Assembly: GCA_027012135.1 (NCBI GenBank) | Contig: JALUZF010000137.1 | Location: 946 to 64,945, forward strand | Source of the DNA: Gammaproteobacteria bacterium | Lineage (GTDB): Bacteria > Pseudomonadota > Gammaproteobacteria > GRL18 | Length of the DNA stretch: 64,000 nt | Reading direction: 5' to 3' | Shown: in pieces, positions 6,096-37,662 of the stretch | Position numbering within the stretch: the stretch's first letter is position 1 | How the letters are laid out: the number at the start of each line of letters is the position of its first letter | Notes under the pieces: generated by a model | The model's database searches: none | Told to the model about the DNA's origin: nothing | Seen by the model: only the letters and a program-made list of their open reading frames with translations | Translations under genes and position numbers: made by a program

Positions 6096-8546
6096 CTAAG
6101 GTAAAATATCGGTATCCGGGCGGGATAATTCAGCTTCAAGCTCTTTTTCCACCTGCTGAAATTCAGACTGGATCTGCTGTATTAATTCCAGAGCTTTTGC
6201 CTGGTTATTCTGATTGATTTGTGCATCTGCATTACATTCAATTTTTTCACACAACTGAGCAAGTCGTACTGCCCCAAGATTGGTGCTGCTGGACTTAAGC
6301 ATATGGGCTGTTTCAGTAAAAGCCTGTTTATCCATGTCCCGCGCGTACTGGCTTAATAAATCGATCAGATCAGGCGTATTATCCAGGTACAGACGGATTA
6401 ACCTGTGCAGTACATCAGGCTGCTCCGGACGCTGCAGTTCTCTGATCTGCTCCCAGGCCTGTTTCTGAATGGTACTGTTTTCAGGGGTAATATCTTCTTC
6501 CTTAAAAGTAACCACTGGTAACTGATGCTTACTGACGTCAAGCCATTGGGACAGTTTGTGAGCCAGCTCACTCAGGGTAAATGGTTTGCTAATGTAATCA
6601 TTCATACCTGCATGCAGGCATTGTTTGCGAATACCGTCACGGACATCGGCCGTCAGAGCAATAATGGGTAATTGTTCTTTACCAGAACGGAGTTCATTAT
6701 GGGTCCGTAAGTGTTCAGTAGCCCTAAATCCATCAATCTGGGGCATATGGCAATCCATAAGGATCATGTCTACCGGTTGTGCTTCAGCAATGCTGATGGC
6801 TTCTTTACCATTGCTGGCCAGCAGCACTTTGCAGCCGAATATTTCAAGCATGGTGCGGGCCAGTTCCTGATTTACGGGGTTGTCTTCGGCGACCAGAACT
6901 GTCGCGGCAAACTGTGGGGTTTCCTGGGCGCAGTCATTTTCCTGGGGACTTTCGGGTAGCAGATTTTCTTCACCCAGCTCCAGGGTTATAGTAAACCAGA
7001 AGGTACTGCCTGAATTGATAGCACTATTAACACCAATGTCACCATCCATCAGGGACACCAGCTGTTTACAGATGGACAGACCCAGTCCGGTTCCTGAGTA
7101 TTCACGGGTGGTGCTGCTGTCCACCTGTGAGAAGGCTTCAAAAACAATACTCTGCTTATCGTAAGGAATACCAATACCGCTGTCTTCTACCTCAAAATAG
7201 AGTTTGATATGTTTATTATCATTATACTGCCCCAGTTCAGGAATGGAGCAGCGCAGGATGATTTCACCCCGGTTGGTAAACTTCAGGGCATTACTGAGCA
7301 GGTTGCTTAATATCTGCTGCAGACGGTTTCGATCGCCAATCAGCACCAGGTGTTCATCAATAACAGGTTCTGAACGCAGCTGCAGGCCCTTGGCCCTGGC
7401 ATCTTCACTAAACAGCTCCAGGGTATCAAGCAGCAGGTTGTAGGGTCGAAAAGCCTGTTTATCCAGGGATAGTTTGCCGGATTCAAACTTGGAAAAATCC
7501 AGTATTTCATTAATAAGAAACAGCAGTGATTTGCCGGAACGCTGTACGGTATTGAGTAATTTAGTCTGTTTGTCGGTTAGCCGGGTACGCAGCAGAATTT
7601 CAACCATACCCAGAACACCATTCATCGGGGTGCGGATCTCATGGCTGATGGTCGCCATAAAATCACTTTTTATATGGTTGGCTTTTTCGGCGATGTTTTT
7701 GGCCTGCAGGGCTTCAAGGGTAATAGCCTGCAGTTCATTGTTCTTTTTATACAGGTCCCTGGTGCGTTCGGCTACTTCACTTTCCAGACGTTGACTGTAA
7801 CTGGCCAGTTGGCTGTCCCGCTGTTGTATCTCGTTAAGCATCTCATTAAATACATCGACCAGGGTGCCGTATTCGTCATTGCTGATCTTATTTGCACGGA
7901 TATTATATTTTTTTTCTGTGGAGACAGATTTCATCGTCTCCATTAACTCAGTTAATGGTGTAGTAAATACTTTTTGCAAACGGGTGGAAATCAGCACCAC
8001 AATTAAAAACGACAGCAAAGCAATAGTAATAACCAGCAGAGAGTAATTATCCAGTTGTCTGGCCAGAGTGTTCTGCTGATAAAGCAGATGAATAGCACCG
8101 ACATTTTCTCCCTGGAGATTAATTTTACGGATGATCAGGTGATAGGGGTAATGTATTGTGGATGATTGTAAATCTGAACAGCTCTGGCTGCTGTCATTAT
8201 TTAAATTAAAAGCAGTTTTATCTTTCTGGTATCTGGGGGACAGGTAGTAACTGAAAACCTGGCCTTTTTTATCACAGAGTATAGTCGCCACAATATCAGA
8301 ATGGCTACTTAAAGATTTCAGGGTTTCCCTGGCCGCATCGGGATCATCAAAGGCTATGGCTGCAGCACTGCTCCAGCCGACTACGTCAGCCAGAGCCGTT
8401 AATTCTTTAATGGTATCGAAATTGGCACGGCGGGTTTCATTAAAAATAACGGCTGATGTCAGTAGTAATAGCCCAATAGCAGATGCCAGGCTCATCATCA
8501 GGATCAGCTTAAAGCGTACAGAGAGATTTTTAAATTCAGGTATCAT
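6096..8546 (-). CDS. Hybrid sensor histidine kinase / response regulator with HPt domain
   Basis: 816 aa. N-terminal TM plus periplasmic sensor, HAMP, H-box SHEIRTPMNG, HATPase (DSGIGI, GTGLGLSI), receiver (LMDCHMPQIDG) and a C-terminal HPt (HMLKSSSTNLG). Confidence 0.9.
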   Translation of the reverse strand: MIPEFKNLSVRFKLILMMSLASAIGLLLLTSAVIFNETRRANFDTIKELTALADVVGWSSAAAIAFDDPDAARETLKSLSSHSDIVATILCDKKGQVFSYYLSPRYQKDKTAFNLNNDSSQSCSDLQSSTIHYPYHLIIRKINLQGENVGAIHLLYQQNTLARQLDNYSLLVITIALLSFLIVVLISTRLQKVFTTPLTELMETMKSVSTEKKYNIRANKISNDEYGTLVDVFNEMLNEIQQRDSQLASYSQRLESEVAERTRDLYKKNNELQAITLEALQAKNIAEKANHIKSDFMATISHEIRTPMNGVLGMVEILLRTRLTDKQTKLLNTVQRSGKSLLFLINEILDFSKFESGKLSLDKQAFRPYNLLLDTLELFSEDARAKGLQLRSEPVIDEHLVLIGDRNRLQQILSNLLSNALKFTNRGEIILRCSIPELGQYNDNKHIKLYFEVEDSGIGIPYDKQSIVFEAFSQVDSSTTREYSGTGLGLSICKQLVSLMDGDIGVNSAINSGSTFWFTITLELGEENLLPESPQENDCAQETPQFAATVLVAEDNPVNQELARTMLEIFGCKVLLASNGKEAISIAEAQPVDMILMDCHMPQIDGFRATEHLRTHNELRSGKEQLPIIALTADVRDGIRKQCLHAGMNDYISKPFTLSELAHKLSQWLDVSKHQLPVVTFKEEDITPENSTIQKQAWEQIRELQRPEQPDVLHRLIRLYLDNTPDLIDLLSQYARDMDKQAFTETAHMLKSSSTNLGAVRLAQLCEKIECNADAQINQNNQAKALELIQQIQSEFQQVEKELEAELSRPDTDILP

Positions 8547-9133
8547 GGTCTGTTAGCAATGCTTTTTTTGATAATGGCCAGTTTCAGTAACCTGGAGCTG
8601 ATTTTCAGGCCTGCCTGTTGAGCTTTTTCCGGATCAATCTGAAAACGAACTTTATGCCTGTGCATAATAAAGTTTAAAATAGCATGGGATTGACCAATAT
8701 CAGGCAGTTCACTAATAGTAAGAATAGAATGTTGCTGGGCCAGTTTAAAGATTTGTCTCATATTACTTTGTTTTATGCCGCTGATAAACAGAATATGGCA
8801 TTGTTTAATCATGTTTAGCCTGGATATAATATTCAACCGGGCAGTATGGCCATTAATATTTTTTCCTTTAACCAGAGTAAAAGTACTTTTCAGGGTTTCA
8901 TTACCCATAACACAGATATTAATAGCTTCGGATGCTTTAAGACGTTTTTCCGGCCATTGTGTCAGGCGTGCAAAATTCATTGTAAAGGCCGCTTTTACCA
9001 TATATTCATCAAATTTATCCTGTGCGGATGCAGTGTAACCGTAATTTATGGTTAACAGACTGAGCAGCAGCAGTATAAACTGCCTGATTAGATGAATGGT
9101 TTTAACGTACTTCATTATTATGCTGCATTCCAT
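8543..9133 (-). CDS. YfiR/DUF4154-family periplasmic protein
   Basis: Signal peptide, VKAAFTMNFARLTQWP and LKISSRLLKLA motifs. 4-bp overlap with the downstream kinase. An alternative ATG at 9115 is possible. Confidence 0.8.
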   Translation of the reverse strand: MECSIIMKYVKTIHLIRQFILLLLSLLTINYGYTASAQDKFDEYMVKAAFTMNFARLTQWPEKRLKASEAINICVMGNETLKSTFTLVKGKNINGHTARLNIISRLNMIKQCHILFISGIKQSNMRQIFKLAQQHSILTISELPDIGQSHAILNFIMHRHKVRFQIDPEKAQQAGLKISSRLLKLAIIKKSIANRP

Positions 9134-9192
9134 ATCCTTTTATAATCATCCGTTTACTACAATGAATGATTAAATGATTTCCAGGCGGCTGC

Positions 9193-11184
9193 TCAATACT
9201 GCCAGAGTAATTTAAAATAAAAAGCACGCTCAATTTCGACTCCATCGTCAATGCTATTACCTCGTACATATTCAATGTGATCCGGCTCTAACAGGTTCTG
9301 TCCAGTGATCGATAGCTCCAGTGCCTTATCAACCTGCCATGCCAGTCGGGCATCTAAAGTGGTATAACTGTCAATCGTTGTTTTGCGGTTTTCCAGGTAA
9401 TCCGTAAAATCATCCGTGTATTTAAACCATAAATTGAGATTAAGGTTCTCCCTTAACTGAATATCACTGCGCAGGGAAAGATTCTGATGAGGCGAATCAG
9501 TTACCAGCTCATCATTAATGCTCTTAAGTGTCTGGTTGTAGTAATTGTAGGCCAGATCCCAGCCCCACCAGTTATTCATCTGCCAGTGTGAAGCCAGCTC
9601 AAAACCGGAGGTATAACCGGTCTGGGCATTATTTAGATTAATAACAATGGGATCAGTCAGGGCAGCGGGTAATACTGAGGTAAAGTCCAGCAGGTCTTTA
9701 TATTCGCTGTAGTAAATAGTGGTATCAATGGATATTGAAGAGCTGGGTATAACCCGATAACCTATTTCATAGGAAGTGACTTCTTCTGATTTAATATTCC
9801 TGTTGCCCTGGAGTTTAAAGACCGGGAATCCACCTGGAGAGGGGAAAACCAGGGATGAATCGTATTCAAAACGTGATGGTATGCGGTTGGCTCTGGAAAT
9901 GGAAGACCACAGCTTATGCCTGGGATTAATATTCCAGAAAATCCGTGCAGTAGGCTGTATTTCCCAGTTGGTGTATTCATTGTGTTCAAATTTGGATCCC
10001 AGGGTTAACCAGAGAGTATTATCGATTAGGGTAATTTCATCCTGAACGAATAAGTTGTACAGACGCTCATTGTCATTATCTTCAACATAGGAGCCTTCCA
10101 CCATATCAAAATCAGCCCAGATATAGCGATAACCGGTGCCCCAGATAATGTCATGATTATTGAGGAGGCTGAAACGATGCTGAAATTCCATGTCCAGGGT
10201 TTGGTGGGTAATATCGGCATAGGCTTCATCTCTATTGGTATAATTATAGTAGGCCTGCAGCTTATAACTGGAAGTCAGGGATTCGGTGTGTTCCCAGCGA
10301 GTCAGAATATTAGCACCTTTAGAGCGGGTGCTCTGATCGGAGTAGCCCAGGCTGGGTGGACTCAGGTAAGCCAGTTCTGAAAATTCACTGTTTTTATTCT
10401 GATAAAGATCCCCCTGAATGGTCAGGTGATCCTGGTTATTTAACTGTCTGTCCAGCCTGCCGCCGCCCTGGTAGGAAGTCCAGTCATCATCCGCACTACC
10501 ACCACCTTTTAAATCATAATTACTGCGCTTATTGCCTTTAAAATAAATTTTGCCAAAGGAATCCGGATCCAGTTGTGTGCCATAACGGATGGAACCAAAA
10601 GCCCGTTCATGGGTGCCCCCACCGGCGCTGAACAGTGTTCCCTGGGTATCAATGGCGTTTTTAGTGATAATATTAATGACACCATTAACGGCATTGGCAC
10701 CCCATAGGGTTGCACCGGGACCGCGGATGACTTCAATGCGTTCAATATCTTCCAGCAGGGTATCCTGTACATCCCAGTATACTCCGGAAAAGGCTGGGGT
10801 ATAGACAGTGCGACCGTCTATCATAACCAGCAGCTTGTTGGCAAAACGGCCGTTAAATCCCCGGCTGGAAATAGCCCATTTATTGGTATCAATACGGGCG
10901 ACCTCAATACCCGGTGCCATCCTCAGTGCCTCGGGAATACTGGTTACACCGCTATGATGAATATCTTCCTGGGTGATCACAAAAACAGCCGCTGCACTGT
11001 CAGATAAGGTCTGTGCCTTTTTACTGACCGAGGTCACTTCCATGTTCATTAACTGTTCAATATCCAGTGACAGGATATCACTGTTTTGTTCAGACTGTTC
11101 GTGTTCTGCAGCAAAGCTGGTTTGCATTAATAACAGCAAACCAGTAGCGACAAGGTATCGTAATGTCAGATGTAGAAAACTCAT
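9193..11184 (-). CDS. TonB-dependent outer-membrane receptor
   Basis: 663 aa. Signal peptide, plug domain (IEVIRGPGATLWGANAVNGVINIITK), a long beta-barrel region and a C-terminal aromatic residue. Confidence 0.9.
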   Translation of the reverse strand: MSFLHLTLRYLVATGLLLLMQTSFAAEHEQSEQNSDILSLDIEQLMNMEVTSVSKKAQTLSDSAAAVFVITQEDIHHSGVTSIPEALRMAPGIEVARIDTNKWAISSRGFNGRFANKLLVMIDGRTVYTPAFSGVYWDVQDTLLEDIERIEVIRGPGATLWGANAVNGVINIITKNAIDTQGTLFSAGGGTHERAFGSIRYGTQLDPDSFGKIYFKGNKRSNYDLKGGGSADDDWTSYQGGGRLDRQLNNQDHLTIQGDLYQNKNSEFSELAYLSPPSLGYSDQSTRSKGANILTRWEHTESLTSSYKLQAYYNYTNRDEAYADITHQTLDMEFQHRFSLLNNHDIIWGTGYRYIWADFDMVEGSYVEDNDNERLYNLFVQDEITLIDNTLWLTLGSKFEHNEYTNWEIQPTARIFWNINPRHKLWSSISRANRIPSRFEYDSSLVFPSPGGFPVFKLQGNRNIKSEEVTSYEIGYRVIPSSSISIDTTIYYSEYKDLLDFTSVLPAALTDPIVINLNNAQTGYTSGFELASHWQMNNWWGWDLAYNYYNQTLKSINDELVTDSPHQNLSLRSDIQLRENLNLNLWFKYTDDFTDYLENRKTTIDSYTTLDARLAWQVDKALELSITGQNLLEPDHIEYVRGNSIDDGVEIERAFYFKLLWQY

Positions 11185-11838: not shown

Positions 11839-12489
11839 TCAGGAGTCTGATTTTTTTAGCAGGCCATGCTGCACCGCCATAACTGCTGCTTCAACCCGGG
11901 AATGGATGTTCAGTTTGCGTAAAATGGCTTTGACATGCAGCTTGACCGTGCCGTCAGAAATATCAAGATTTCGGGCAATCACCTTGTTACTCTGGCCTTC
12001 GGCCAGCAAAAACAGGATTTCGGTTTCCCTTGGGGTCAGCTCTGAAAAAGGACTGGGTTCTGGTGCCGGGGGCACATGACCCTGTACTACCTTGGCCAGA
12101 ATAGGGGTGAGATCCGGTGCAACCACGGTTTTGCCTTCATGAATATCCTGCAGGGCGGCGACCAGTTCATCCGGCTGCATACCCTTAAGTAAAAAGCCCT
12201 GGGCACCGCATTGCAGGGCTTCAATCAGATCCCGTTCATCATCCACTGTGGTCAGAATGGCAATGGGCATAGTTTCACCATTTTCCCGCAGGCTTTTTAA
12301 TACCGCTATCCCGTCCATATCCGGCATGCGCATATCCAGCAGTACCACATCGGGCTTTTTTTCACTGACAATTTTAAGACCTTCCTGACCACTGCCGGCA
12401 CTGGCAATGACTTCAATACCCATTCGTTCCAGCAGTCCCTGTAAGCCTGCACGGAACAGGGTATGATCATCTATTAGTAATACTCGCAT
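11839..12489 (-). CDS. NarL/FixJ-family response regulator
   Basis: 216 aa. Receiver domain (VLLIDDH, LLDMRMPDMDG) plus a LuxR-type HTH (LTPRETEILFLLAEGQSNKVIARNL). Confidence 0.9.
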   Translation of the reverse strand: MRVLLIDDHTLFRAGLQGLLERMGIEVIASAGSGQEGLKIVSEKKPDVVLLDMRMPDMDGIAVLKSLRENGETMPIAILTTVDDERDLIEALQCGAQGFLLKGMQPDELVAALQDIHEGKTVVAPDLTPILAKVVQGHVPPAPEPSPFSELTPRETEILFLLAEGQSNKVIARNLDISDGTVKLHVKAILRKLNIHSRVEAAVMAVQHGLLKKSDS

Positions 12490-12603: not shown

Positions 12604-14235
12604 TTATGGGAAAAACTTGACCGATTTTTCTACTACGGGCTGGGTAGGGAATGTTAGCAGAATTCTGGTTCCCTCTCCAGTTTCAGTTTCAATTGAAATT
12701 CTGCCGCCGATACGGCGTGCCCGTTCTTCCATAACACTCATACCAATATGCTCCCCGAGACTATTGGTTAAATTAGGATTTTCCATGCCCCTGCCATCAT
12801 CTTCAATAAGTATTTCGCACTGGTTATTGTCTTCTTCGTAGCGGTGGCCTGGTTTAGGGCTTCGTGCCAGAATACGAACGGTTCGGGCATTACTGTGCTT
12901 GCGGACATTGGCCAGCGATTCCTGGACAATACGCACGATCTGGAATTCCTGTTCTGAAGTCAGGTCCATGGACCATTCATTCTGAAAAAACACCGAGATA
13001 TCGCAATTAGACTTAAAGTTAGAAATAAGCTTTTCCAGGGCTGGTATCAACCCGCGTTTATCCATGGGGGCTCGGAAATGGGTGATCAGCCCGCGTACTT
13101 CACGGTAGGCCTCGTCAATGCTTTCATGCAGACAGGTGACTTCTTCACGGGTGACAGGAATGCCTTCAATAATATTTTCTTCCAGGATGGTGACCTGAAA
13201 ACGTAAACTGGCCAGGGTCTGTGCCAGGGAATCGTGCAGTTCGTGCGCCAGCAGAGTTCTTTCCTTCATAATGGAGTGCTGGCGGGTATCTTTATCCAGG
13301 CGGGATTTTTCAATGGCCATACCCAGATGCTTACCGATACTGGTGAGCAGTTCAGATAAATCCTCGCTCATATAGACATTGGGCTGGTCAATAAACAGGT
13401 TATAAATTCCCAGATGTACACCCTGATGCTCCAGGGGAACAGCAATAATTTCAGCATCATTACCATCAAACAGCATGGTGCCGGAAAGTTTGGTACAGTT
13501 TTTAATGGAAATGCCGCATTCAACCGAACCCTGGGTTAAGGATGTGCCGCATAAACAGCGCTGAATAGGTACAAAACGTTCTTCCTCAACAAACTGTTCG
13601 TTCAGGCCCATGGAGGCCACCATTTTTAATTGATCGTCATCGGTGCGTAAACGTACAGTCCCGGCCCGGGCATTGGTCAGGCTGATAAGCATTTTCAGGA
13701 AACGGGATAACAGGTCTTCCAGGTCTTTGGACTGGTTAATGGAAGTGGCCACTTCATAAAGAATATTCAGGGAACGATTTTTTTCCTCTACCTTATGGGT
13801 TTGCTTATCAACTTCCTGCTGAAATTCTGCAGACAGGGCCTGCAGTTTGTCACTCAGGGAATTAATATCATGGGACAGCTTGGAAAATTCACCCTTGCGG
13901 GGGACCGGCAGGCGAGCAGAATAATCCTTTTTCTTCATTCTCATGGCCCAGTTGCGTAAATGAATAAAAGGCGTGACCAGGTCGTGACGAACCAGAAAGG
14001 AGATACGGATAATCAGGAACAGTCCTGAAAACAGGAAAATAAGATTAAGAACAATTAACAGGAGGTGGCTGGAGATGATCTGGCTGGCTGCAAGCAAACC
14101 CAGCATGGACATGGCTAGCAGTAATATGCCCAGACTGACAATAGGCAGAAACAGCCGGCTGTATTTCAGCTGAATGAGCTGATTAGCCTGTTCCTGTCGA
14201 TTTTTAAAACGTTTTTTTATCTGTGTAAGTGGCAT
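12604..14235 (-). CDS. NarX/NarQ-type sensor histidine kinase with GAF-like module
   Basis: Two TM segments plus HAMP, a GAF-like central region, HisKA_3 H-box HELHDSLAQTLASL, and HATPase (EDDGRGM). ATG at 14235 is preferred over the in-frame TTG at 14286. Confidence 0.85.
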   Translation of the reverse strand: MPLTQIKKRFKNRQEQANQLIQLKYSRLFLPIVSLGILLLAMSMLGLLAASQIISSHLLLIVLNLIFLFSGLFLIIRISFLVRHDLVTPFIHLRNWAMRMKKKDYSARLPVPRKGEFSKLSHDINSLSDKLQALSAEFQQEVDKQTHKVEEKNRSLNILYEVATSINQSKDLEDLLSRFLKMLISLTNARAGTVRLRTDDDQLKMVASMGLNEQFVEEERFVPIQRCLCGTSLTQGSVECGISIKNCTKLSGTMLFDGNDAEIIAVPLEHQGVHLGIYNLFIDQPNVYMSEDLSELLTSIGKHLGMAIEKSRLDKDTRQHSIMKERTLLAHELHDSLAQTLASLRFQVTILEENIIEGIPVTREEVTCLHESIDEAYREVRGLITHFRAPMDKRGLIPALEKLISNFKSNCDISVFFQNEWSMDLTSEQEFQIVRIVQESLANVRKHSNARTVRILARSPKPGHRYEEDNNQCEILIEDDGRGMENPNLTNSLGEHIGMSVMEERARRIGGRISIETETGEGTRILLTFPTQPVVEKSVKFFP

Positions 14236-14334
14236 GTCTACATATTGTTTAACACAAAAGACGAGTCTAACAGAACAGCAGAGCAATTGTCACTCTGCTG
14301 TATTGAGCGGATAGGCTCTGACTAAATGGTAAAC

Positions 14335-14658
14335 TTACTGTGCAGGCGGCTTGTAGTTAGGATCATTGGGATTCTTGAAAATAAACTGTTTGTCATCACC
14401 TTCTACTTCACTGTCCACTTCGACAAAGTCGATTTCCATGCCGTTTAACAGATCCACCATGTCATTATTGACAATAATTTTAACTCCGCGGGATTCAACC
14501 AGGGTATCGTCTTCCTTCTGGGTATCAAAACCCATAAGATACTGAAATCCCTGTATTTTAGAATGGGTGGTAACTGCCACTCTTAAGGGATCATCACTGC
14601 CGCTGGCTTTAATCTGTTCCAGAATTTGATTAGCTGCATCTTCTGTCAGTTTTATCAT
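14335..14658 (-). CDS. dsrR: DsrR (IscA/A-type-carrier-like protein lacking the cluster-binding cysteines)
   Basis: 107 aa with an IscA/HesB-like sequence and no cysteine at all. 4-bp overlap with dsrN upstream, as expected for dsrNR. Confidence 0.75.
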   Translation of the reverse strand: MIKLTEDAANQILEQIKASGSDDPLRVAVTTHSKIQGFQYLMGFDTQKEDDTLVESRGVKIIVNNDMVDLLNGMEIDFVEVDSEVEGDDKQFIFKNPNDPNYKPPAQ

Positions 14659-16142
14659 AGTTTCCTCTCACTTGATTGTTTTGTGTTAGTTTGTATTAGT
14701 TGTTTGTTTGTGGGTATATGTTTGCATTGCTTAATAAATTTAACAAATCGGCTTGTCCAGTGATTCTGGGTCGTGTCCTGTAAATGGGCATAACAGGCCA
14801 GTAGATTTTTATAGATGATGCCGTCATGATGACCGTCAATGCCGCTGCCGCGATGGATAGTATAGGCAAATGTTAAGGGCTGCTGAATATTCACCAGGTG
14901 GGAATAGTGAAACTCATGGGCAGAAATGATTTTTTCTGCGTTAATTTCTTTATCTATAGTATCACTGCCACTCTCAAGCCTTGGCCAGGGCATGGCTTCA
15001 GTCTCTGTAAAGCGGATTAAACCGCGTCCCTGAGGGGTTTCTTCCATTCTGGCATCAGCGGGAATAACGCCGGCCATGGCATATTGTATATCATTCCAGA
15101 TAATATTCTGACATAAATACATCAGCCCGCCGCATTCAGCGTAGGTGGGGAGGCCGTTTTCAATGGCTTCCTGTATTGACTGACGAAAGGACTGATTGGC
15201 ATTAAGCTCCTGCAGCCGTTCTTCAGGGAAGCCGCCGCCGATAAACAGGCCGTCAATATCCTCAGGTAAGCGAGTATCTTTCAGGGAATTGACTTCAATC
15301 AGCTGTGCTCCGGCCTGTTCCAGTGCTTCCAGATCACCGGGGTAGTAAAATCCAAAGGCTGAATCATTAATATAGGCCAGGCGGATATCAGCGGCTATCG
15401 GCTGAGTATTAGGAAGCGATCTAATGGTACTTTTAAGATGTTTTGGGGAATGATGGTGACTGATGTCTATAATTTGTTCAAGATCGGTCTGGGCTGAAAT
15501 AATGGTACCGATATCATTAATTTTCTGCTGGGCTTCACCATCTTCATTACTGGGCATCAGGCCCAGGTGCCGTTCTACAATTTCCAGACGTTTGTCTCTG
15601 TGGATTGCGCCCAGTACCGGAACATCAGTATAATGTTCAATAACAGCCCGCAGCTTGCTCTCATGGCGGGAACCGCCCAGCTGATTAAGAATAACTCCGG
15701 CAATATTAATACCCGGATCAAAAGACTGGTAACCGAGGATCAGCGGGGCGATACCCCGGGTCATGCCCCGGGCATCCAGTACCAGTATAACCGGGGCATC
15801 GAGCAGTTTGGCAATGGCGGCATTACTATTACTGCCGTCCAGATCAAGGCCATCGTATAAACCCTTATTGCCTTCAATAATACTGATATCCGAAGCGGTT
15901 ATTTTTCTGGATACCAGTTGCAGAATCTCGTCTCTGGACATGGTGTTAAAGTCCAGGGAATAGCACGGCCGGCCGGCCGCACTGCCATGCCAGAGCGGAT
16001 CAATATAATCAGGACCCTTTTTAAAGGGCTGAACACGCAGATCTTTCTGCTTCATAGCGGCCAGCAGACCAATGGTAATGGTGGTTTTACCAGAGGATTT
16101 ATGGGCAGCAGAGATAAATAAGGGGGTTGAAGAAATCGACAT
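14655..16142 (-). CDS. dsrN: DsrN, cobyrinate a,c-diamide synthase-like siroheme amidase
   Basis: 495 aa, CobB/CbiA family. N-terminal AAHKSSGKTT, C-terminal amidotransferase Cys motif AECGGLMYL. Located in the dsr context. Confidence 0.85.
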   Translation of the reverse strand: MSISSTPLFISAAHKSSGKTTITIGLLAAMKQKDLRVQPFKKGPDYIDPLWHGSAAGRPCYSLDFNTMSRDEILQLVSRKITASDISIIEGNKGLYDGLDLDGSNSNAAIAKLLDAPVILVLDARGMTRGIAPLILGYQSFDPGINIAGVILNQLGGSRHESKLRAVIEHYTDVPVLGAIHRDKRLEIVERHLGLMPSNEDGEAQQKINDIGTIISAQTDLEQIIDISHHHSPKHLKSTIRSLPNTQPIAADIRLAYINDSAFGFYYPGDLEALEQAGAQLIEVNSLKDTRLPEDIDGLFIGGGFPEERLQELNANQSFRQSIQEAIENGLPTYAECGGLMYLCQNIIWNDIQYAMAGVIPADARMEETPQGRGLIRFTETEAMPWPRLESGSDTIDKEINAEKIISAHEFHYSHLVNIQQPLTFAYTIHRGSGIDGHHDGIIYKNLLACYAHLQDTTQNHWTSRFVKFIKQCKHIPTNKQLIQTNTKQSSERKL

Positions 16143-16317: not shown

Positions 16318-16527
16318 TTAACGTTTCCAGCCTGAACCTTTTTCTTCGTGAGCCATATCCAGAACCTGAACGGCTTTATCCATATAGTCATTCTTATAGG
16401 TTTCTAAAGGATGACCGGCACCTGGATTGTAGTAATCATCAGGATGCATACCATTTTCATGCTCAAATTTGATAAATTCTCTTTGCATTTTAAGTAATTC
16501 TTGAATCAGTTCTGCTTTAGTGCTCAT
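16318..16527 (-). CDS. Small hypothetical protein (69 aa)
   Basis: Isolated ORF with its own terminator. No recognised domain. Confidence 0.5.
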   Translation of the reverse strand: MSTKAELIQELLKMQREFIKFEHENGMHPDDYYNPGAGHPLETYKNDYMDKAVQVLDMAHEEKGSGWKR

Positions 16528-16672: not shown

Positions 16673-17011
16673 TTAATAACCGCCTTTACGCTTGCTTTCT
16701 GGTAAGCCTGAAATACGGCCGCCCTGTTTGCTGGGATCTTTTGGAAACAGATCATACAGATCTTTAGAGCCAATCTTTTCACCCCAGGTTGCACTCATTT
16801 CTTTAATCATGGTGCGGGTATTGGGTTGCTTGCCGCCATTATTGATGTACTGGTCACGCAGGTAGTTAATAAGATCCCAGTGTCTGTCTGTCAGCTCAAG
16901 ACCTTCTTCTGCCGCCATCTGTTTTGCCAGATCTTCACTCCAGTCATTAATGTCGACCAGGTAACCGTTAGGGGTGGTTTCTATTTCTTTACCTTCAAAA
17001 GTAATGGCCAT
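16673..17011 (-). CDS. DsrC/TusE-family protein without any cysteine (RspA-type paralogue)
   Basis: 112 aa, collinear with DsrC/TusE (FEGKEIETTPNGYL, HWDLINYLRDQY, DLYDLFPKDPSKQGGRISGLP). The C-terminus is ESKRKGGY instead of the PxxGC(V) arm. No Cys residues. Confidence 0.85.
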   Translation of the reverse strand: MAITFEGKEIETTPNGYLVDINDWSEDLAKQMAAEEGLELTDRHWDLINYLRDQYINNGGKQPNTRTMIKEMSATWGEKIGSKDLYDLFPKDPSKQGGRISGLPESKRKGGY

Positions 17012-17085: not shown

Positions 17086-17133
17086 ACTAAAAACTTAATA
17101 AATTGAATAGGAAATAATATATTAGTTAAAAAT

Positions 17134-17160
17134 AAAAAACACCTCTCAAAAGAGATAGGT
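17134..17160 (-). terminator. Putative terminator after the Cas6-like gene
   Basis: The minus strand reads acctatctc-tttt-gagaggt followed by a U-run. The stem has a 2-nt bulge. Confidence 0.4.
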
Positions 17161-17180: not shown

Positions 17181-17864
17181 CTAATCGGCGTTAACCGCAG
17201 TGATACCTTTCTGGGGGATGAATACCCCACATCCATAACTATAAAAGTCACCTACCCCGTTTTCCTGCAGGAGAATCGATTCTTCAGGGCTGATGTCCGC
17301 TATCATCAGGCTGCGGGTTTTAATTGGGCCACTGGGTGTGCTTAAAGTATGGGACTTGCCGCATAACATTTTACGCACATCAATATCCATGGCCTGGATT
17401 TGCTGGTAAATGACCTTTAAAAAAGCCTCTTCATCATTATCAGTGTTCGGAACATGGACATGACGAGAAACCAGTGTTGTTAAGGTACTTAATAACTGTT
17501 GTTCAGATTGGCCAAAAGTTAGCTTGAAGCCGTCAACGGTAATTTTTTTACCGGTTAAAGTCCGGGTATCTTCAATGCGGTGTCTGGGTACCCGTAGTTT
17601 CAGCCGGGTACGGCGGGAAAGCTGAATGACTTCATCATTAAATTCATCAGAACGTACCCAGCCGTTTCCTGATTGCGGGATATAAATATGATGCACAGCA
17701 CATTGAGATTCATCCTTGAACCAGGGCAGAAGCTCATTAATGGCATTGGTCAGGGACCAGGCATGATCCAGTTTGATCTGTTTACAATCCAGTTTAAATG
17801 ATAAATCAACGACTTTATCCGGTGCCTGAAATTCCTGTGGCTTTTCTTCTTCACTCCAGAACAT
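17181..17864 (-). CDS. Orphan Cas6/Cmx6-like RAMP protein
   Basis: 227 aa. N-terminal block VVDLSFKLDCKQIKLDHAWSLTNAINELLPW and C-terminal glycine-rich loop GVGDFYSYGCGVFIP match my recollection of the type I-MYXAN Cas6/Cmx6 family. No HMM search was run. Confidence 0.6.
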   Translation of the reverse strand: MFWSEEEKPQEFQAPDKVVDLSFKLDCKQIKLDHAWSLTNAINELLPWFKDESQCAVHHIYIPQSGNGWVRSDEFNDEVIQLSRRTRLKLRVPRHRIEDTRTLTGKKITVDGFKLTFGQSEQQLLSTLTTLVSRHVHVPNTDNDEEAFLKVIYQQIQAMDIDVRKMLCGKSHTLSTPSGPIKTRSLMIADISPEESILLQENGVGDFYSYGCGVFIPQKGITAVNAD

Positions 17865-17978: not shown

Positions 17979-18167
17979 TCAGGTTGGACTGGTAAATTTG
18001 GCTTCCAGATCAGATTCCCACTCATCAGGAGTATCAGGGAAGGGCGGTTTAATATCAATATCAAAAAACATTTCACCGTCCCGAGCCCTGGACTGAATAA
18101 AACGGATTAAATCGGCATAGGATTCAAGCTGATGATTCTGTATTAAAACTTCACTTAAAATTAACAT
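17979..18167 (-). CDS. Small acidic hypothetical protein (62 aa)
   Basis: Isolated ORF facing away from dsrA. No recognised domain. Confidence 0.4.
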   Translation of the reverse strand: MLILSEVLIQNHQLESYADLIRFIQSRARDGEMFFDIDIKPPFPDTPDEWESDLEAKFTSPT

Positions 18168-18612
18168 AGGAAAAGACTCAACAATTAATATGGGTTTAAC
18201 ATAAGACCTGGAGCTGATATTTTCAAGGTCTCTGGACAGAAGCTGTAATTATTATAGGTAAAACCATTATAGATGGAATGTCAGGAGGTGGACAAAGTAA
18301 AATACCATATTAAAGAGAGTGGATTCTGTTCCACCATAAGTGACCTGATTTGAACTGTTTTTATAAAGAATTTTAGAACTATTATTAAAGTAAAATAACC
18401 TATAAAAAAAGTGGGAATTTATAAGTAAGTCAATGATATTAAAGCATAAAAGTGACAGTCCGGGAGTATGCCTTAAAAGATATATCCACAAGGGGATAGT
18501 GGTGTAGGGAGCATGCCTCCCAAAGGAAGGGTGTAATACTTTATTATTAAGTCCTAAAATACATTTCATTGTTTTTCGTGTGCCTTGTTAAAAATCAGAT
18601 TATCGTGTATCT

Positions 18613-18776: not shown

Positions 18777-20036
18777 GTGCCTAAAGTCAAGATCTATGAT
18801 ACTCCGATGTTGGATGAGCTGGAAAATGGTGAATGGCCAAGCTTCATCAGCGGCATTAAGCGTTTAAGAGATGACCATCCGAATGAGCGTATCAATAATA
18901 TGGTTAATGGCCTGCTGGGTCAGCTGGAACATTCTTATGAAACTCGCATGGGTTGGTGGAAAGGCGGTACCGTATCTGTATTCGGTTACGGCGGCGGTAT
19001 TATTCCACGTTTTTCGGAAGTTGCTGAGCACTTCCCTGAATCCAAAGAATTTCACACTGTACGTGTTCAGCCGCCGGCGGGTAACTTCTACACCGCTGAT
19101 ATCCTGAATAAACTGGCGGATGACTGGGAGCAGCACGGCTCAGGCCTGCAGACGTTCCATGGTCAGACCGGTAACATTATGTTTATTGGTTCGACTACCG
19201 ATGAAATGCAGCCGTTCTTTGACAAAATCAATGCTTACGGTTGGGACCTTGGTGGTGCCGGCCCCTGTGTTCGTACTGCAATGGCCTGTGTTGGTGCGGC
19301 CCGTTGTGAACACTCCTGTACTAACGAACACGGTTTAATGCGTCACCTGGTCAATGAATTCCAGGACGATCTGCACAGACCGGCTCTGCCCTACAAGTGG
19401 AAGATTAAAGTATCCGGTTGTCCAAATGACTGCACCAACGCCATTGAACGTGCTGATATGGCCGTGATTGGTATCTGGCGCGATGACATGAAAGTGGACC
19501 AGGAAGAAGTTAAAAAGTTTGTTGAAGCCAAGGGTCGTGACTACGTTATCGATAACGTTACTGACCGTTGTCCTTCCAATGCCATTAAACTGAATGACGA
19601 CAACACTGTGGACATTAACAACCAGGAATGTGTTCGTTGTATGCATTGTATCAATGTTATGACCAAAGCCCTGGCGCCTGGTGATGACACGGGTGTAACC
19701 ATTCTTATCGGCGGTAAGCGTACTCTGAAGATTGGTGACATGATGGGTACTGTGGTTGTTCCATTTATGAAAGTGGATACCATGGATCAAATCGAAGCAC
19801 TGGTTGAACTGACCGGTGAAATGATTGATTTCTTCGCAGAAAACGCTCTGGAACACGAACGTACCGGTGAAATGATTGAACGTATTGGTCTGGTTAACTA
19901 CCTGGAAGGTTTAGGTTTAGATCTGGATCCCAATATGGTCAGCGAGCCGCGTCAATGTTCATACGTACGTATGGATGGCTGGGATGAAGAAGTTAAGAAG
20001 TGGTATGACAAGAAAGCTGAAGCAGCTTCTGCATAA
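18777..20036 (+). CDS. dsrA: Reverse-type dissimilatory sulfite reductase alpha subunit
   Basis: 419 aa. GTG start 6 nt after GGGAG. Siroheme/[4Fe-4S] Cys motifs (CVRTAMACVGAARC, CPNDC) and a ferredoxin insert (CVRCMHC). Confidence 0.95.
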   Translation: MPKVKIYDTPMLDELENGEWPSFISGIKRLRDDHPNERINNMVNGLLGQLEHSYETRMGWWKGGTVSVFGYGGGIIPRFSEVAEHFPESKEFHTVRVQPPAGNFYTADILNKLADDWEQHGSGLQTFHGQTGNIMFIGSTTDEMQPFFDKINAYGWDLGGAGPCVRTAMACVGAARCEHSCTNEHGLMRHLVNEFQDDLHRPALPYKWKIKVSGCPNDCTNAIERADMAVIGIWRDDMKVDQEEVKKFVEAKGRDYVIDNVTDRCPSNAIKLNDDNTVDINNQECVRCMHCINVMTKALAPGDDTGVTILIGGKRTLKIGDMMGTVVVPFMKVDTMDQIEALVELTGEMIDFFAENALEHERTGEMIERIGLVNYLEGLGLDLDPNMVSEPRQCSYVRMDGWDEEVKKWYDKKAEAASA

Positions 20037-20073
20037 GACACACTTCGAACATCTTTAGATAATTGTTAATTCG

Positions 20074-20106
20074 TCATTATCAGGCAGTTCTACTGCCCGA
20101 TAATGA
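20074..20106 (+). promoter_or_regulatory. Strong stem-loop in the dsrA-dsrB spacer
   Basis: tcattatcaggcag / ttcta / ctgcccgataatga pairs at 13 of 14 positions and has no U-run. Candidate mRNA processing or stability element. Confidence 0.5.
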
Positions 20107-20136
20107 ACAATAAGTTTATTAGAACAGGAAATTAAT

Positions 20137-21213
20137 ATGGCTGCAGATAAACCAAAAATGCCTATCGAATCGGGAGCTCCAGACGGCTTCCAGTATATGC
20201 ACCCAACCATGCGCAGAAACTTTGGTCAGTGGAAATATCATGAAAGACCACGTCCAGGTGTACTGAAGCACGTTGCACACAGCGGTGATGAAATCTACAC
20301 CATTCGTGTCGGTACTTCCCGTATTCTGGATGTATTCACTCTGCGTGAAATTACCCGTATTGCTAACGAACTGGGTGACGGCTTTATCCGTTTCACTATT
20401 CGTTCCAACCTTGAATACATGGTTGACGACGAAGCAAAAGTAGCACCAATGATCGAAGCGATTGAAAAAGCCGGTCTGATTGTCGGTGGTACAGGTCCTA
20501 CTATTACTTCACCTTCTCACACACAGGGCTGGCTGCACTGTGACATCCCAGGTTCTGATGCTTCTGGCGTTGTTAAGTCCATGATGGATGAGCTGGTAGA
20601 AGAATTTAAACGTGAAGAAATGCCTAACCGCGTTCACATTACTACTTCCTGCTGTCAGATTAACTGTGGTGGGCAGGGTGATATTGCGATTAACATTCAG
20701 CACACCAAGCCACCCAAGATTGCTCACGAACTGGTAGCCAATGCCTGTGAACGTCCAACCGTTGTTGCCCGTTGCCCGGTTGCTGCCATTCGTCCTGCCA
20801 TGGTTGACGGTCATCCAACTCTGGAAGTTGATGAGAAGAAATGTATCTGTTGTGGTGCATGTTACCCACCATGTCCTCCAATGCTGATTAACGACGCGGT
20901 TTACACTACCCTGGCTATCTGGGTTGGTGGTAATCACTCAAACGCTCGTGGCAAGCCTACTTTCCAGAAACTGGTTGCGGCTGGCATTCCAAACAACCCA
21001 CCACGCTGGCCTGAAGCTACCGCTTTAGTTAAGCGTATCCTGAAAGTCTACAAAGAAGACGCTAAGGACTGGGAACGTATGAATGACTGGATTGAGCGTA
21101 TCGGCTGGTTTGGTTTCTTTGAAAAGACCGGTCTGCCATTCACCAAGTTCCATATTGATGACTGGAGAGGCGCGCGTAACAGCCTGAACGCTTCTACGCA
21201 TATCCGCTTTTAA
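20137..21213 (+). CDS. dsrB: Reverse-type dissimilatory sulfite reductase beta subunit
   Basis: 358 aa, collinear with DsrB. Ferredoxin-like CICCGACYPPCP and the TSCCQINCGG cluster motif. Confidence 0.95.
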   Translation: MAADKPKMPIESGAPDGFQYMHPTMRRNFGQWKYHERPRPGVLKHVAHSGDEIYTIRVGTSRILDVFTLREITRIANELGDGFIRFTIRSNLEYMVDDEAKVAPMIEAIEKAGLIVGGTGPTITSPSHTQGWLHCDIPGSDASGVVKSMMDELVEEFKREEMPNRVHITTSCCQINCGGQGDIAINIQHTKPPKIAHELVANACERPTVVARCPVAAIRPAMVDGHPTLEVDEKKCICCGACYPPCPPMLINDAVYTTLAIWVGGNHSNARGKPTFQKLVAAGIPNNPPRWPEATALVKRILKVYKEDAKDWERMNDWIERIGWFGFFEKTGLPFTKFHIDDWRGARNSLNASTHIRF

Positions 21214-22843: not shown

Positions 22844-22888
22844 CACACAGTCGAAGACGAATTATCAGTTGTTTTAACTGAAATTCAT

Positions 22889-22940
22889 GTCTGGAAACGT
22901 GTTGTCAGGAGTTAAATTCTGGATAACACGCCTTCCAGAC
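22889..22940 (+). promoter_or_regulatory. Long hairpin between dsrC and dsrM
   Basis: gtctggaa-a-cgtgtt ... aacacg-cc-ttccagac gives 8 + 6 bp of stem. An A-rich tract follows rather than a U-run. Candidate attenuator or processing site. Confidence 0.5.
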
Positions 22941-22973
22941 ACCGTATTAAAAAATTATTAATGGGTAGGTAAT

Positions 22974-30154: not shown

Positions 30155-30832
30155 TCAGGTATCTGCCCACATTTGTACCAGTTTAATATAGGTAACATCC
30201 ACGCCCTGTGTTTCATCAGCCTGGGGTTTTTCTCTCAAAAGTTTTTCCCGCGCCTGCCATAACTCGTAAAGTACCTCACGCTTATTGGCATCCTGGATCA
30301 TGCTCTGAGCCCAGGTGACGCATACCAGACGTTCTCCATCCGTCACCTTATCCACATAATGCCAGCTGGTAGAAGGATAGACAATGGCACTGCCGGCTTT
30401 TAAACGGGCACGGTGTTCCCCGTATTTGGTGACAATAACCAGGTCTCCACCTTCGTATTCTGACGGATCATTTAAAAAAATAGTGGTAGAGACATCGGTC
30501 CGGTACATATTGGGCATCTGACCCATAATCGGGTTGTCGATGTGTCCACCATAGCCCATGCCTTTTCGATACCGGGCAAGAAAGGGGGCGCCGATTTTTT
30601 TCATCATGACAGCGGCTTTATAAATTTCGTTATTTATCAGGCTGCCCATCAGAATATTATTGAGAGACTGCATCTGTGGTGAACCATCCTGAACCAGTTC
30701 CTCGTTGTTTTTAACCTGCTGTGCCACGTCTCCGGCCGATATTTTACCGTCCACAAAACTGGCCTGTTTTAATACCGCCTGTATGGATTTAAGTTGCTGA
30801 GGATTAATAACGTCAGGGATCTCAAGTAACAT
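30155..30832 (-). CDS. PKHD-type Fe(II)/2-oxoglutarate hydroxylase (PiuC/YbiX-like)
   Basis: 225 aa from ATG 30832 (GGAG 6 nt upstream). Collinear with E. coli YbiX. HxD (GGHIDN) and a distal His (TSWHYV). Confidence 0.85.
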   Translation of the reverse strand: MLLEIPDVINPQQLKSIQAVLKQASFVDGKISAGDVAQQVKNNEELVQDGSPQMQSLNNILMGSLINNEIYKAAVMMKKIGAPFLARYRKGMGYGGHIDNPIMGQMPNMYRTDVSTTIFLNDPSEYEGGDLVIVTKYGEHRARLKAGSAIVYPSTSWHYVDKVTDGERLVCVTWAQSMIQDANKREVLYELWQAREKLLREKPQADETQGVDVTYIKLVQMWADT

Positions 30833-30929
30833 GACTAACTCCATAGTGATAATTTTTATTACTTGAAGTTTACGAGATTATCCCCATATAGACTATACAT
30901 TTTTTATTTATTCTTGATATGGGGCAACT

Positions 30930-34028: not shown

Positions 34029-35072
34029 ATGAGAGCGTCACAACTATTTACCGTCCTGGACCAGGAATTTGAAGGTACTAAAACCGGACACCATACCCCG
34101 GTAATGATCTGGGGGCCGCCGGGCGTGGGTAAATCCCAGTTAGTCAGCCAGGTCGCCCAAAAGCATGATCGTACCCTGATTGATATTCGTCTGTCCCAGA
34201 TGGAACCCAGTGATTTACGGGGTATTCCGTTTAAGGATGGTGATAAAGTGGAATGGGCAGTACCTTCTATGTTGCCGGATGTTCAAAAACACGGTGCAGA
34301 AGGTATTCTGTTTCTGGATGAAATCACCTCTGCACCACCCAGTGTATCTGCTGCGGCATATCAGCTTATTCTGGATCGCCGTCTGGGGGATTATCAGATC
34401 CCTGACGGCTGGGCAATTTTTGCCGCCGGTAACCGTCAGGGTGACCGCGGGGTCACCTATAGTATGCCGGCACCGCTGGCTAACCGTTTTTCCCATTATG
34501 AATTTGATATTAACCTGGATGACTGGGTACACTGGGCTTACCAGAGTGGTATTGATGAGCGGGTTATTGCCTTCCTGCGTTTTCGTCCGGATCTGTTATT
34601 TGATTTTGACCCGGCCCATAATCCGGTGGCTTTCCCATCTCCCCGTACCTGGGAGTTTGTGCATAAGGCTCTGAATAAATTTATGGATCATCCTGAACTG
34701 TTCCTGGGTGCTCTGCAGTCCTGCGTCGGTCCTGCGGCCGGTATTGAGCTTAATGCCTTTATTGCCAACCTGGATGAAATGCCGGATCTGGATGCCATTA
34801 TTAATGGAGAAGATGTACCCACCCCTTCAGAAATCGATCTGCAGTATGCCGTGGCCTCCGCTCTGGTAGGACGTGCTATTCGGGCTAAAGGTACAGATGA
34901 AGCGAATAAAACTTATACCAATATCCTCAGGTACGCATCCAGTTTCCGCCAGAAAGAAATGGGGGTAATGCTGGTTTCTGATATGCACCGGGCCATTGGT
35001 GAAGAGCTTTTCAGTGTTGAAGAATTTGCTAACTGGGCGGATGCCATAGCCGATATTATGTTGTATGGATGA
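34029..35072 (+). CDS. MoxR-class AAA+ ATPase
   Basis: 347 aa. Walker A GPPGVGKS, Walker B ILFLDEIT, and MoxR-like LDRRLGDYQIPDGWAIFAAGN and ANRF motifs. Confidence 0.85.
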   Translation: MRASQLFTVLDQEFEGTKTGHHTPVMIWGPPGVGKSQLVSQVAQKHDRTLIDIRLSQMEPSDLRGIPFKDGDKVEWAVPSMLPDVQKHGAEGILFLDEITSAPPSVSAAAYQLILDRRLGDYQIPDGWAIFAAGNRQGDRGVTYSMPAPLANRFSHYEFDINLDDWVHWAYQSGIDERVIAFLRFRPDLLFDFDPAHNPVAFPSPRTWEFVHKALNKFMDHPELFLGALQSCVGPAAGIELNAFIANLDEMPDLDAIINGEDVPTPSEIDLQYAVASALVGRAIRAKGTDEANKTYTNILRYASSFRQKEMGVMLVSDMHRAIGEELFSVEEFANWADAIADIMLYG

Positions 35073-36336: not shown

Positions 36337-36349
36337 CATAAAGAACACT

Positions 36350-37522: not shown

Positions 37523-37662
37523 ATAATGAGTATTAACTATCGCAGTAATATTTTGTAAAAATATTAAATAATTACCGGATATGGTATTATAAAAAGTTAA
37601 TATTCTTATTTTACCGCCCTGAATTCAGAATAAGCAGAGCAAAAAGCAGAGGTAGAAAACAA

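Follow-up and report, generated by a model that had tools for sequence, protein, structure and literature searches.

The stretch of DNA analysed here (64,000 nucleotides of contig JALUZF010000137.1 from a gammaproteobacterium; hereafter the window) carries the gene cluster dsrABEFHCMKLJOP and, divergent from it, a string of minus-strand genes: orf62, cas6L, rspA, orf69, dsrN, a dsrR-like gene, a NarQ/X-like kinase gene and a NarL-like regulator gene. Our subject is the second gene of this string, whose product we call Cas6L.

17181..17864, minus strand: cas6-like gene (Cas6L), dsr-linked clade of the Cmx6 family; open reading frame (ORF), profile and fold evidence

The ORF runs from ATG to stop and encodes 227 residues. 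We hold with high confidence that Cas6L represents a CRISPR-free Cas6-fold clade that is fixed in an accessory operon sharing the control region of dsrAB. It looks as though sulfur metabolism has taken over a component of CRISPR.

Family and predicted fold of Cas6L

The preliminary description of this gene had assigned its product to the Cas6/Cmx6 endoribonuclease family on the basis of an N-terminal block and a C-terminal glycine-rich loop. Both are present in the 227-residue product (VVDLSFKL..IKLDHAWSLTNAINELLPW and GVGDFYSYGCGVFIP, respectively), and the assignment is borne out by profile searches and by the predicted fold. Against Pfam PF09559 (Cas6), Cas6L scores 194.6 bits (cut-off 26.7; E 2.2e-57) over 190 of the 191 profile positions, and against the NCBIfam equivalog model TIGR02807 (cas6_cmx6) it scores 110.1 bits, above the cut-off of 98.85. 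Such scores lie well outside chance. The Cas6 models of PADLOC match at E 1e-54. The sole solved structure reached from Cas6L by sequence is 8fcj_B, the Cas6 of a cyanobacterial type I-B CRISPR-associated transposon (CAST) Cascade, at E 1e-6 with the single sequence (phmmer) and E 1e-21 with the family profile. Caspase-1 matches (E ~0.01) in PDB profile searches were judged spurious. No known Cas6 active site could be reached through sequence, as the profiles of both the dsr-linked and the CRISPR-linked clade match only 8fcj_B in the PDB.

The AlphaFold2 model of Cas6L, built with 62 homologues as input, has a predicted local distance difference test score (pLDDT) of 89 and a predicted template modelling (TM) score of 0.85. 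Its layout is a double beta-alpha-beta-beta-alpha-beta arrangement, that is, two tandem RNA recognition motif (RRM)/ferredoxin-like domains, which is the Cas6 fold. In a Foldseek comparison with the PDB the top matches are the Cas6 chains 8fcu_B and 8fcj_B (E 6e-14, TM 0.74-0.79), and below them come about 30 more Cas6/Cas6e chains, including Cas6 of P. furiosus, Thermus and E. coli. Over 62 sequences of the Cas6L family 24 residues are invariant, indicating strong purifying selection. The conserved residues G203, G205, G211, C212 and G213 of Cas6L align to the GIGGKRKMMCG loop of 8fcj_B. Since sequence and fold agree, Cas6L is confirmed as a Cas6/Cmx6-like repeat-associated mysterious protein (RAMP), and both profile and model make it a true member of the Cmx6 family with the two-RRM Cas6 fold.

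Conserved linkage to dsrAB

Our comparison covers 95 related loci (L numbers below), taken from contigs of genomes and metagenomes; tblastn searches with the window proteins served for their annotation. The orf62 count below includes only loci with enough flanking sequence, and the dsrA count requires at least 4.5 kb of flank. The genes around cas6L in the window are as follows.

17979..18167, minus strand: orf62, acidic conserved protein of 62 residues, directly upstream of Cas6L; motif KPPFPDTPxxWE
16673..17011, minus strand: rspA, DsrC/TusE-family paralogue (PF04358, E 1.8e-33; TIGR03342)
16318..16527, minus strand: orf69, conserved acidic protein of 69 residues, no known family; from alignment
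14655..16142, minus strand: dsrN (CbiA/GATase_3 amidase type), downstream of the module on the same strand; from domains of orthologues
14335..14658, minus strand: dsrR-like gene of the IscA/HesB family (PF01521, TIGR00049)
12604..14286, minus strand: GAF/HisKA_3 sensor kinase, best matches NarQ/NarX
11839..12489, minus strand: NarL-family response regulator, receiver plus GerE helix-turn-helix domain; from NCBIfam
18777..21213, plus strand: dsrA and dsrB, first genes of dsrABEFHCMKLJOP, divergent from the module; from ORFs and tblastn

The flanks are as first described, with cas6L between dsrN and dsrA and beside a cysteine-free DsrC paralogue. The statement that the gene sits alone did not hold up: it is one gene of a conserved module of four to five genes. 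orf62 lies directly upstream of cas6L in all 55 loci that could be scored, rspA follows cas6L in 52 of 54, and orf69 was found in 32 of 44 (in L100 directly after cas6L). dsrA lies divergently upstream in 26/27 loci, whose Cas6L proteins span 30-97% identity to the query, and even the most remote relatives reached (L098-L100, 30-40% identity) are dsrAB-linked. The linkage to dsrAB and to the cysteine-free DsrC paralogue is thus conserved in nearly all relatives, and Cas6L is therefore no stray cas gene. It is a fixed member of a small operon, (tauD-like)-orf62-cas6L-rspA-orf69, divergent from dsrAB, in sulfur-oxidising Gammaproteobacteria that include chemosynthetic symbionts.

Two layouts recur. 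The window has the order orf62-cas6L-rspA-orf69-dsrN-dsrR-kinase-regulator, in which dsrN is linked in close relatives only (7 of 28 loci). The commoner layout has a gene for a TauD-family dioxygenase ahead of orf62 (26/35 loci), which the window lacks. In this layout a gene for a 235-residue protein sometimes separates orf62 and cas6L (16 of 64 loci). A PKHD/YbiX-type 2-oxoglutarate (2OG) hydroxylase gene stands near the module, convergent after orf69, in 10 of 18 long loci; the window copy lies after dsrP (30155-30844, minus strand). Fe(II)/2OG oxygenase genes of these two kinds recur around the module, as in L014 (7278-8213), L034 (6858-7802), L099 (8076-9023) and L100 (8861-9778). The single exception to the dsr linkage is L062 (7445-8687), where the orf62-cas6L pair is kept with no dsr gene within 8 kb; next to the pair lie genes for a dihydrolipoamide-dehydrogenase-like protein, a dicarboxylate symporter, a CxxCxxCC protein and GroEL.

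The family is large. Relatives of Cas6L are encoded on at least 567 metagenome stretches (567 of 600 candidates confirmed), and an exhaustive HMMER search returned 756 clusters at 50% identity with E<=1e-3, or 141 with E<=1e-30. The named members come from gammaproteobacterial metagenome-assembled genomes, Chromatiales and sulfur-oxidising symbionts. The sources (RefSeq/PGAP, IMG) label them 'type I-MYXAN CRISPR-associated protein Cas6/Cmx6'.

All four module proteins (orf62, Cas6L, RspA and orf69) are acidic. RspA (isoelectric point, pI, ~5.2) lacks both C-terminal cysteines of DsrC and contains no Cys at all. Its C-terminus, ...GLPxSxRKGGY, is invariant in 56 sequences and replaces the Cys-bearing arm of DsrC (...GLPKPTGCV). 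The orf62 protein has a pI of 4.5 and matches no Pfam family. Its single-sequence AlphaFold2 model (pLDDT 67) was too weak and was kept out of the fold search. In L098 a small ORF ahead of cas6L (8946-9158) matches Pfam DUF6967 (E 6.5e-30). A short R-x-G-E/H-x-F..D..P....W stretch aligns between it and orf62; the hhalign probability is 4%, so that homology of the two is not established.

A few further features of the loci deserve mention. In L002 (chromosome OY820613.1), a 96%-identical relative, an insert of ~1.5 kb (8473-10000) with frameshifted IS4-like transposase fragments separates orf62 from cas6L, both of which are intact. L014 (9866-10156) and L015 (3847-3927) are identical apart from ~210 nt inserted into the cas6L-rspA spacer (see also L021, 8673-9016); in L014 the spacer with the insert forms a very long hairpin (-112 kcal/mol) that resembles a miniature inverted-repeat transposable element. 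In the window, genes for an AAA_5 ATPase, a DUF2201 protein (metallopeptidase-like plus VWA) and an uncharacterised protein of ~390 residues are followed by the siroheme synthase gene cysG (34029-39105). The same trio follows rspA in L099 (12075-15558), and CysG is encoded near the module in L100. This AAA_5/DUF2201/CysG cluster may be a second dsr-associated maturation set.

No CRISPR-Cas system around the gene

The absence of CRISPR or cas partners, as first noted, holds for the window. It contains no CRISPR-like array, and the PADLOC core Cas models matched only Cas6L among its 39 ORFs of at least 150 residues (smaller ORFs, of cas2 size, lay outside the scan). A weak Cas10b match belongs to a GGDEF-EAL protein at 42996-45002. 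Weak CARF/RtcR-type matches (E 6e-7 to 2e-4) came from at least one window ORF and probably reflect generic Rossmann/AAA similarity.

For comparison, we retrieved bona fide Cmx6 loci with the 8fcj_B sequence. In these, the cmx6 gene directly precedes DevT(Cas8b)-DevR(Cas7)-Cas5, with TniQ nearby and a short array whose repeat, GTGATTCATGGCTTCATGCCGTTAGGCGTTGCTCAA, forms a stem-loop with a 5-bp stem and a GUUA loop. DevT, Cas7 and Cas5 of two such loci (L096 and L097), used as tblastn queries, found nothing in the window or in the dsr-linked loci. No CRISPR array was detected in any dsr-linked locus, while that of the positive control L097 was, and no Cascade gene or array occurs in any of the 95 related loci. 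The 47-bp tandem repeats between the kinase and response-regulator genes of L012 (15246-15340) have no spacers and are not CRISPR-like. Cas6L therefore lacks the genomic context, Cascade genes and an array, that defines a component of type I-B/I-MYXAN systems.

A clade apart from CRISPR-linked Cmx6

We compared the dsr-linked proteins with CRISPR-linked Cmx6, sampled from cyanobacteria only. Identity between the two sets is ~27% (range 17-35%), and the median identity within each is 38% for the dsr-linked and 58% for the CRISPR-linked proteins. Clade-specific hidden Markov models separate the sets, with a score difference of at least +146 bits for every member of the dsr clade and of at most -230 bits for every member of the CRISPR clade. 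By sequence, the dsr-linked proteins are thus a separate large clade that appears to have left CRISPR-Cas.

The homology to type I-B (I-MYXAN) Cas6/Cmx6, for example chain B of 8FCJ/8FCU, extends over the full length and includes the double-RRM fold and the G-rich loop. Residues D20, D33, H58, R91, R134, R184 and Q200 are conserved in both clades, as is the loop motif GxG...CGxFxP (G203, G205, C212, G213, F215 and P217). Unlike type I-B Cmx6, Cas6L is acidic, has lost the GGKRK segment and the His of PxLHELK, and is encoded beside dsrAB with no array or DevT/Cas7/Cas5 neighbours. The dsr clade alone has a 16-residue acidic N-terminal extension with an invariant W3, and an inserted SGNGW loop (residues 65-69) that has a lower pLDDT. 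Also specific to it are H34, where 96% of CRISPR-clade proteins have Asn, as well as W48, E145, S185 and G211, the basic residues R85, K165 and K219, and the conserved cysteines C27 and C168; H34, W3, W48, C27 and C168 are new invariant positions relative to type I-B Cmx6. R154 and several Tyr residues of the CRISPR clade are missing from it.

The shared dsrA control region

The region between the module and dsrA contains two conserved elements.

18483..18498, no strand: 16-bp palindrome TATCCACAAGGGGATA (consensus TATCCCn-nn-nGGGATA), ~280 nt upstream of dsrA
18517..18560, plus strand: conserved proximal promoter block, CCTCCCAAAGGAAGGGT element followed by a -10-like TAAAAT (18555-18560) for dsrA; inferred promoter

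In nearly every locus, dsrA is preceded at a distance of 165-290 nt by a TATCCC-N4-GGGATA palindrome. It is the sole sequence-conserved inverted repeat that we found, and the 64 kb contain no 1-mismatch match besides the copy at 18483-18498. The layout is the palindrome, ~18 nt, CACCCCAWGGGTAGGRT (window 18517-18533), ~25 nt and a -10-like CCTAnAnT (window 18555-18560), and it is the same in L008, L010, L012 and L021-L094. A degenerate copy of the palindrome stands directly after cas6L, ahead of rspA.

NarL recognises pairs of heptamers, TACYYMT, in a 7-2-7 arrangement. Written as TATCCCn-nn-nGGGATA, the palindrome fits this layout. The best NCBIfam match of the response regulator at 11839..12489 is NarL (217.5 bits, under the equivalog cut-off of 250 bits). 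A response regulator gene is adjacent in 7/18 long loci, and the NarL-like regulator recurs in L008, L010, L012, L098 and L100. Because of the match to the NarL layout and the NarL/NarQ/X-like pair in the operon, recurring in distant loci, we assign the palindrome to DNA-level control by this NarXL-like system, of which it is probably a 7-2-7 operator. The arrangement suggests that dsr and the divergent module form one regulon of the NarXL-like system.

Does Cas6L act on RNA?

Our leading interpretation, to which we give a probability of about 0.4, is that Cas6L has been exapted to serve the dsr regulon by binding RNA and possibly cutting it. Our reason is that Cas6L keeps the G-rich loop and the His/Arg core (H58, R91, R134, R184 and Q200) of CRISPR-linked Cmx6; its clade also has conserved basic residues of its own (R85, K165 and K219). 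The dsr transcript, moreover, consistently contains structured hairpins, located in the dsrA-dsrB spacer, the dsrC-dsrM spacer and the 5' leader. On this view Cas6L would still bind structured RNA and would work at the post-transcriptional level, dedicated to the dsr regulon, through binding and possibly cutting. Orf62 and RspA, both small and acidic, would probably be its partners in a complex, and its target may be recognised by RNA shape, not sequence, or be encoded elsewhere. A fuller version is possible, if somewhat doubtful: a whole Cas6 clade would have been domesticated to regulate reverse dsr, a core operon of energy metabolism, by binding or processing RNA, and with orf62 and the Cys-free DsrC mimic RspA it would make up a small ribonucleoprotein.

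Several observations weigh against an action on RNA. The first concern the possible targets.

20073..20106, plus strand: dsrA-dsrB intergenic hairpin, present in most loci, sequence not conserved
22889..22940, plus strand: dsrC-dsrM intergenic hairpin, present in most loci, sequence not conserved
17125..17159, minus strand: weak hairpin CCTATCTCTTTTGAGAGGTG plus T-run just past the cas6L stop, ahead of rspA; degenerate copy of an operator half-site

The preliminary description had located the first two hairpins and proposed them as targets of Cas6L. Both exist, and strong GC-rich hairpins in these spacers (window 20037-20136 and 22844-22973) are near-universal across loci. Whether one compares different loci or the two sites of a single locus, the stems are unrelated in sequence. 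This is not the pattern expected of a sequence-specific Cas6 site, and their role as targets is unsupported. Sequence conservation is likewise missing from the hairpins near the 5' end of the putative dsrA leader and from the hairpin after the cas6L stop. Our search of the dsrA leader and of three spacers (cas6L-rspA, dsrA-dsrB and dsrC-dsrM) in the 95 loci found hairpin sequences conserved within close subgroups only, and no sequence-conserved hairpin or repeat that could be the target of Cas6L. An Rfam scan of 11-31 kb of the window gave nothing above the gathering score. The hairpin past the cas6L stop had also been taken for the gene's own terminator; the hairpin and T-run are there, but the hairpin is weak (17159-17125, minus strand; -8.2 kcal/mol, z -1.75) and is missing from the terminator-scan listing.

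The palindrome was considered as a Cas6-type RNA stem-loop, being similar in size to the Cmx6 repeat hairpin, and was rejected in favour of a DNA operator. Its mismatches are C.A on either strand and so favour neither strand as RNA, its right half-site is better conserved than its left, and this sole conserved inverted repeat precedes the likely -10 element of dsrA, and thus the probable dsrA start. For these reasons we do not read it as an RNA stem-loop.

The protein itself has also changed. The basic G-loop segment GGKRK is lost, with GDFYS in its place in Cas6L and GPYRL in the dsr-clade consensus. The pI is 5.8 for Cas6L and has a median of 6.0 in the dsr clade, versus 9.2 for 114 CRISPR-linked Cmx6 proteins. 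CRISPR-linked Cmx6 has an invariant His pair, H43 and H51 (P0269 numbering); the equivalent of H51 is kept as H58, and the His of the CRISPR-clade P-x-L-H-E-L motif is lost in the dsr clade, where the equivalent of H43 (query position 50) is K or variable. P-x-L-H-E-L-K appears to resemble Y-L-H-E-V-K, which contains the catalytic His of P. furiosus Cas6. With an acidic clade that has lost the Lys-rich G-loop and this His, RNA binding or cleavage by Cas6L is therefore a prediction from the fold.

Alternative explanations

The main alternative is that Cas6L no longer handles RNA and is a protein-binding subunit. Together with orf62, RspA and orf69 it would act on the enzymes of the Dsr system, perhaps in the assembly, maturation or gating of DsrAB, where the RspA arm ...RKGGY could mimic DsrC in the DsrAB channel. 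We regard it as possible, if somewhat doubtful. The loss of the Lys-rich G-loop and of one invariant His points this way, as do the acidity of all module proteins and the missing conserved RNA target in the spacers and leader. The clade-specific features of Cas6L, namely the acidic N-terminus with W3, the SGNGW loop, C27 and C168, also speak for this reading, and the gene order of cas6L with orf62 and rspA is very tight. The RKGGY tail of RspA stands where DsrC has its catalytic cysteines, and maturation-type neighbours (dsrN, dsrR, CysG, the AAA_5/DUF2201 pair) are abundant. The Arg/His core and the G-rich loop of RNA-binding Cmx6 are, however, kept under strong selection, and no Cas6 fold that acts purely on proteins is known to us.

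It is improbable that Cas6L, alone or with RspA, is itself a DNA-binding regulator of the TATCCC-N4-GGGATA palindrome and its degenerate copy. Nearly all loci conserve the palindrome, just as they do Cas6L and RspA, and the NarXL-like genes are adjacent in some loci only (7 of the 18 long ones for the response regulator). Yet the site fits a NarL heptamer pair, the operon itself, like distant loci, encodes a NarL-like regulator together with a NarQ/X-like kinase, Cas6L is acidic, and no DNA-binding Cas6 is known to us.

A standard type I-B/I-MYXAN Cas6, working for a CRISPR-Cas system at another place in the genome and found beside dsr by accident, would explain the passed TIGR02807 cut-off and the RefSeq names of the relatives, but this in-trans reading is close to refuted by the dsr linkage in 26 of 27 loci over 30-97% identity, by Cascade genes or arrays in 0/95 loci against DevT-Cas7-Cas5 and an array beside bona fide Cmx6, and by the clean separation of the two clades in HMM scores.

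Relation to known systems and implications

Accessory proteins of the dsr system with a part in expression are known. DsrS of Allochromatium vinosum is an accessory dsr protein implicated in the control of dsr expression. DsrR of the same organism is likewise an accessory dsr protein implicated in regulating dsr expression (PMC11406059). Like these, cas6L is a non-catalytic, dsr-linked accessory gene of sulfur oxidisers for which a post-transcriptional role is the leading idea; the fold of DsrR, and presumably that of DsrS, is unrelated to the Cas6L fold, and the window has a separate DsrR-like gene of the IscA family (14335-14658). RspA (16673-17011) is the constant neighbour that defines the module together with Cas6L; it is a partner and not itself a Cas6-like protein. 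CASTs offer another parallel, as a Cas component is recruited there to a non-defence role and the nearest solved relative of Cas6L is a CAST Cas6. CASTs, however, keep Cascade, CRISPR RNA and an array, whereas Cas6L is a Cas6 domain alone in a metabolic gene cluster. In the open full-text literature (subscription-only articles lay outside our scope), including a 2024 survey of dsr gene content, we found no dsr-linked Cas6, and in the open literature no pairing of RspA with a Cas6 homologue.

Through the label 'Cas6/Cmx6', public annotation miscounts the CRISPR content of sulfur oxidisers, and a conserved dsr accessory module goes unseen. If the reuse proposed here is correct, Cas6L would cleanly exemplify how one Cas domain was reused outside defence and transposition, and if it is an RNA regulator of reverse dsr, it would be the first Cas6 with a housekeeping role that belongs to neither defence nor a transposon. 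The dsr locus gains four to five uncharacterised genes (tauD-like, orf62, cas6L, rspA and orf69) in many marine-sediment and symbiont sulfur oxidisers, and these share a promoter region and a putative NarL-type operator with dsrAB. Because the regulation and maturation of reverse Dsr are poorly understood, the module genes are concrete targets for genetics.

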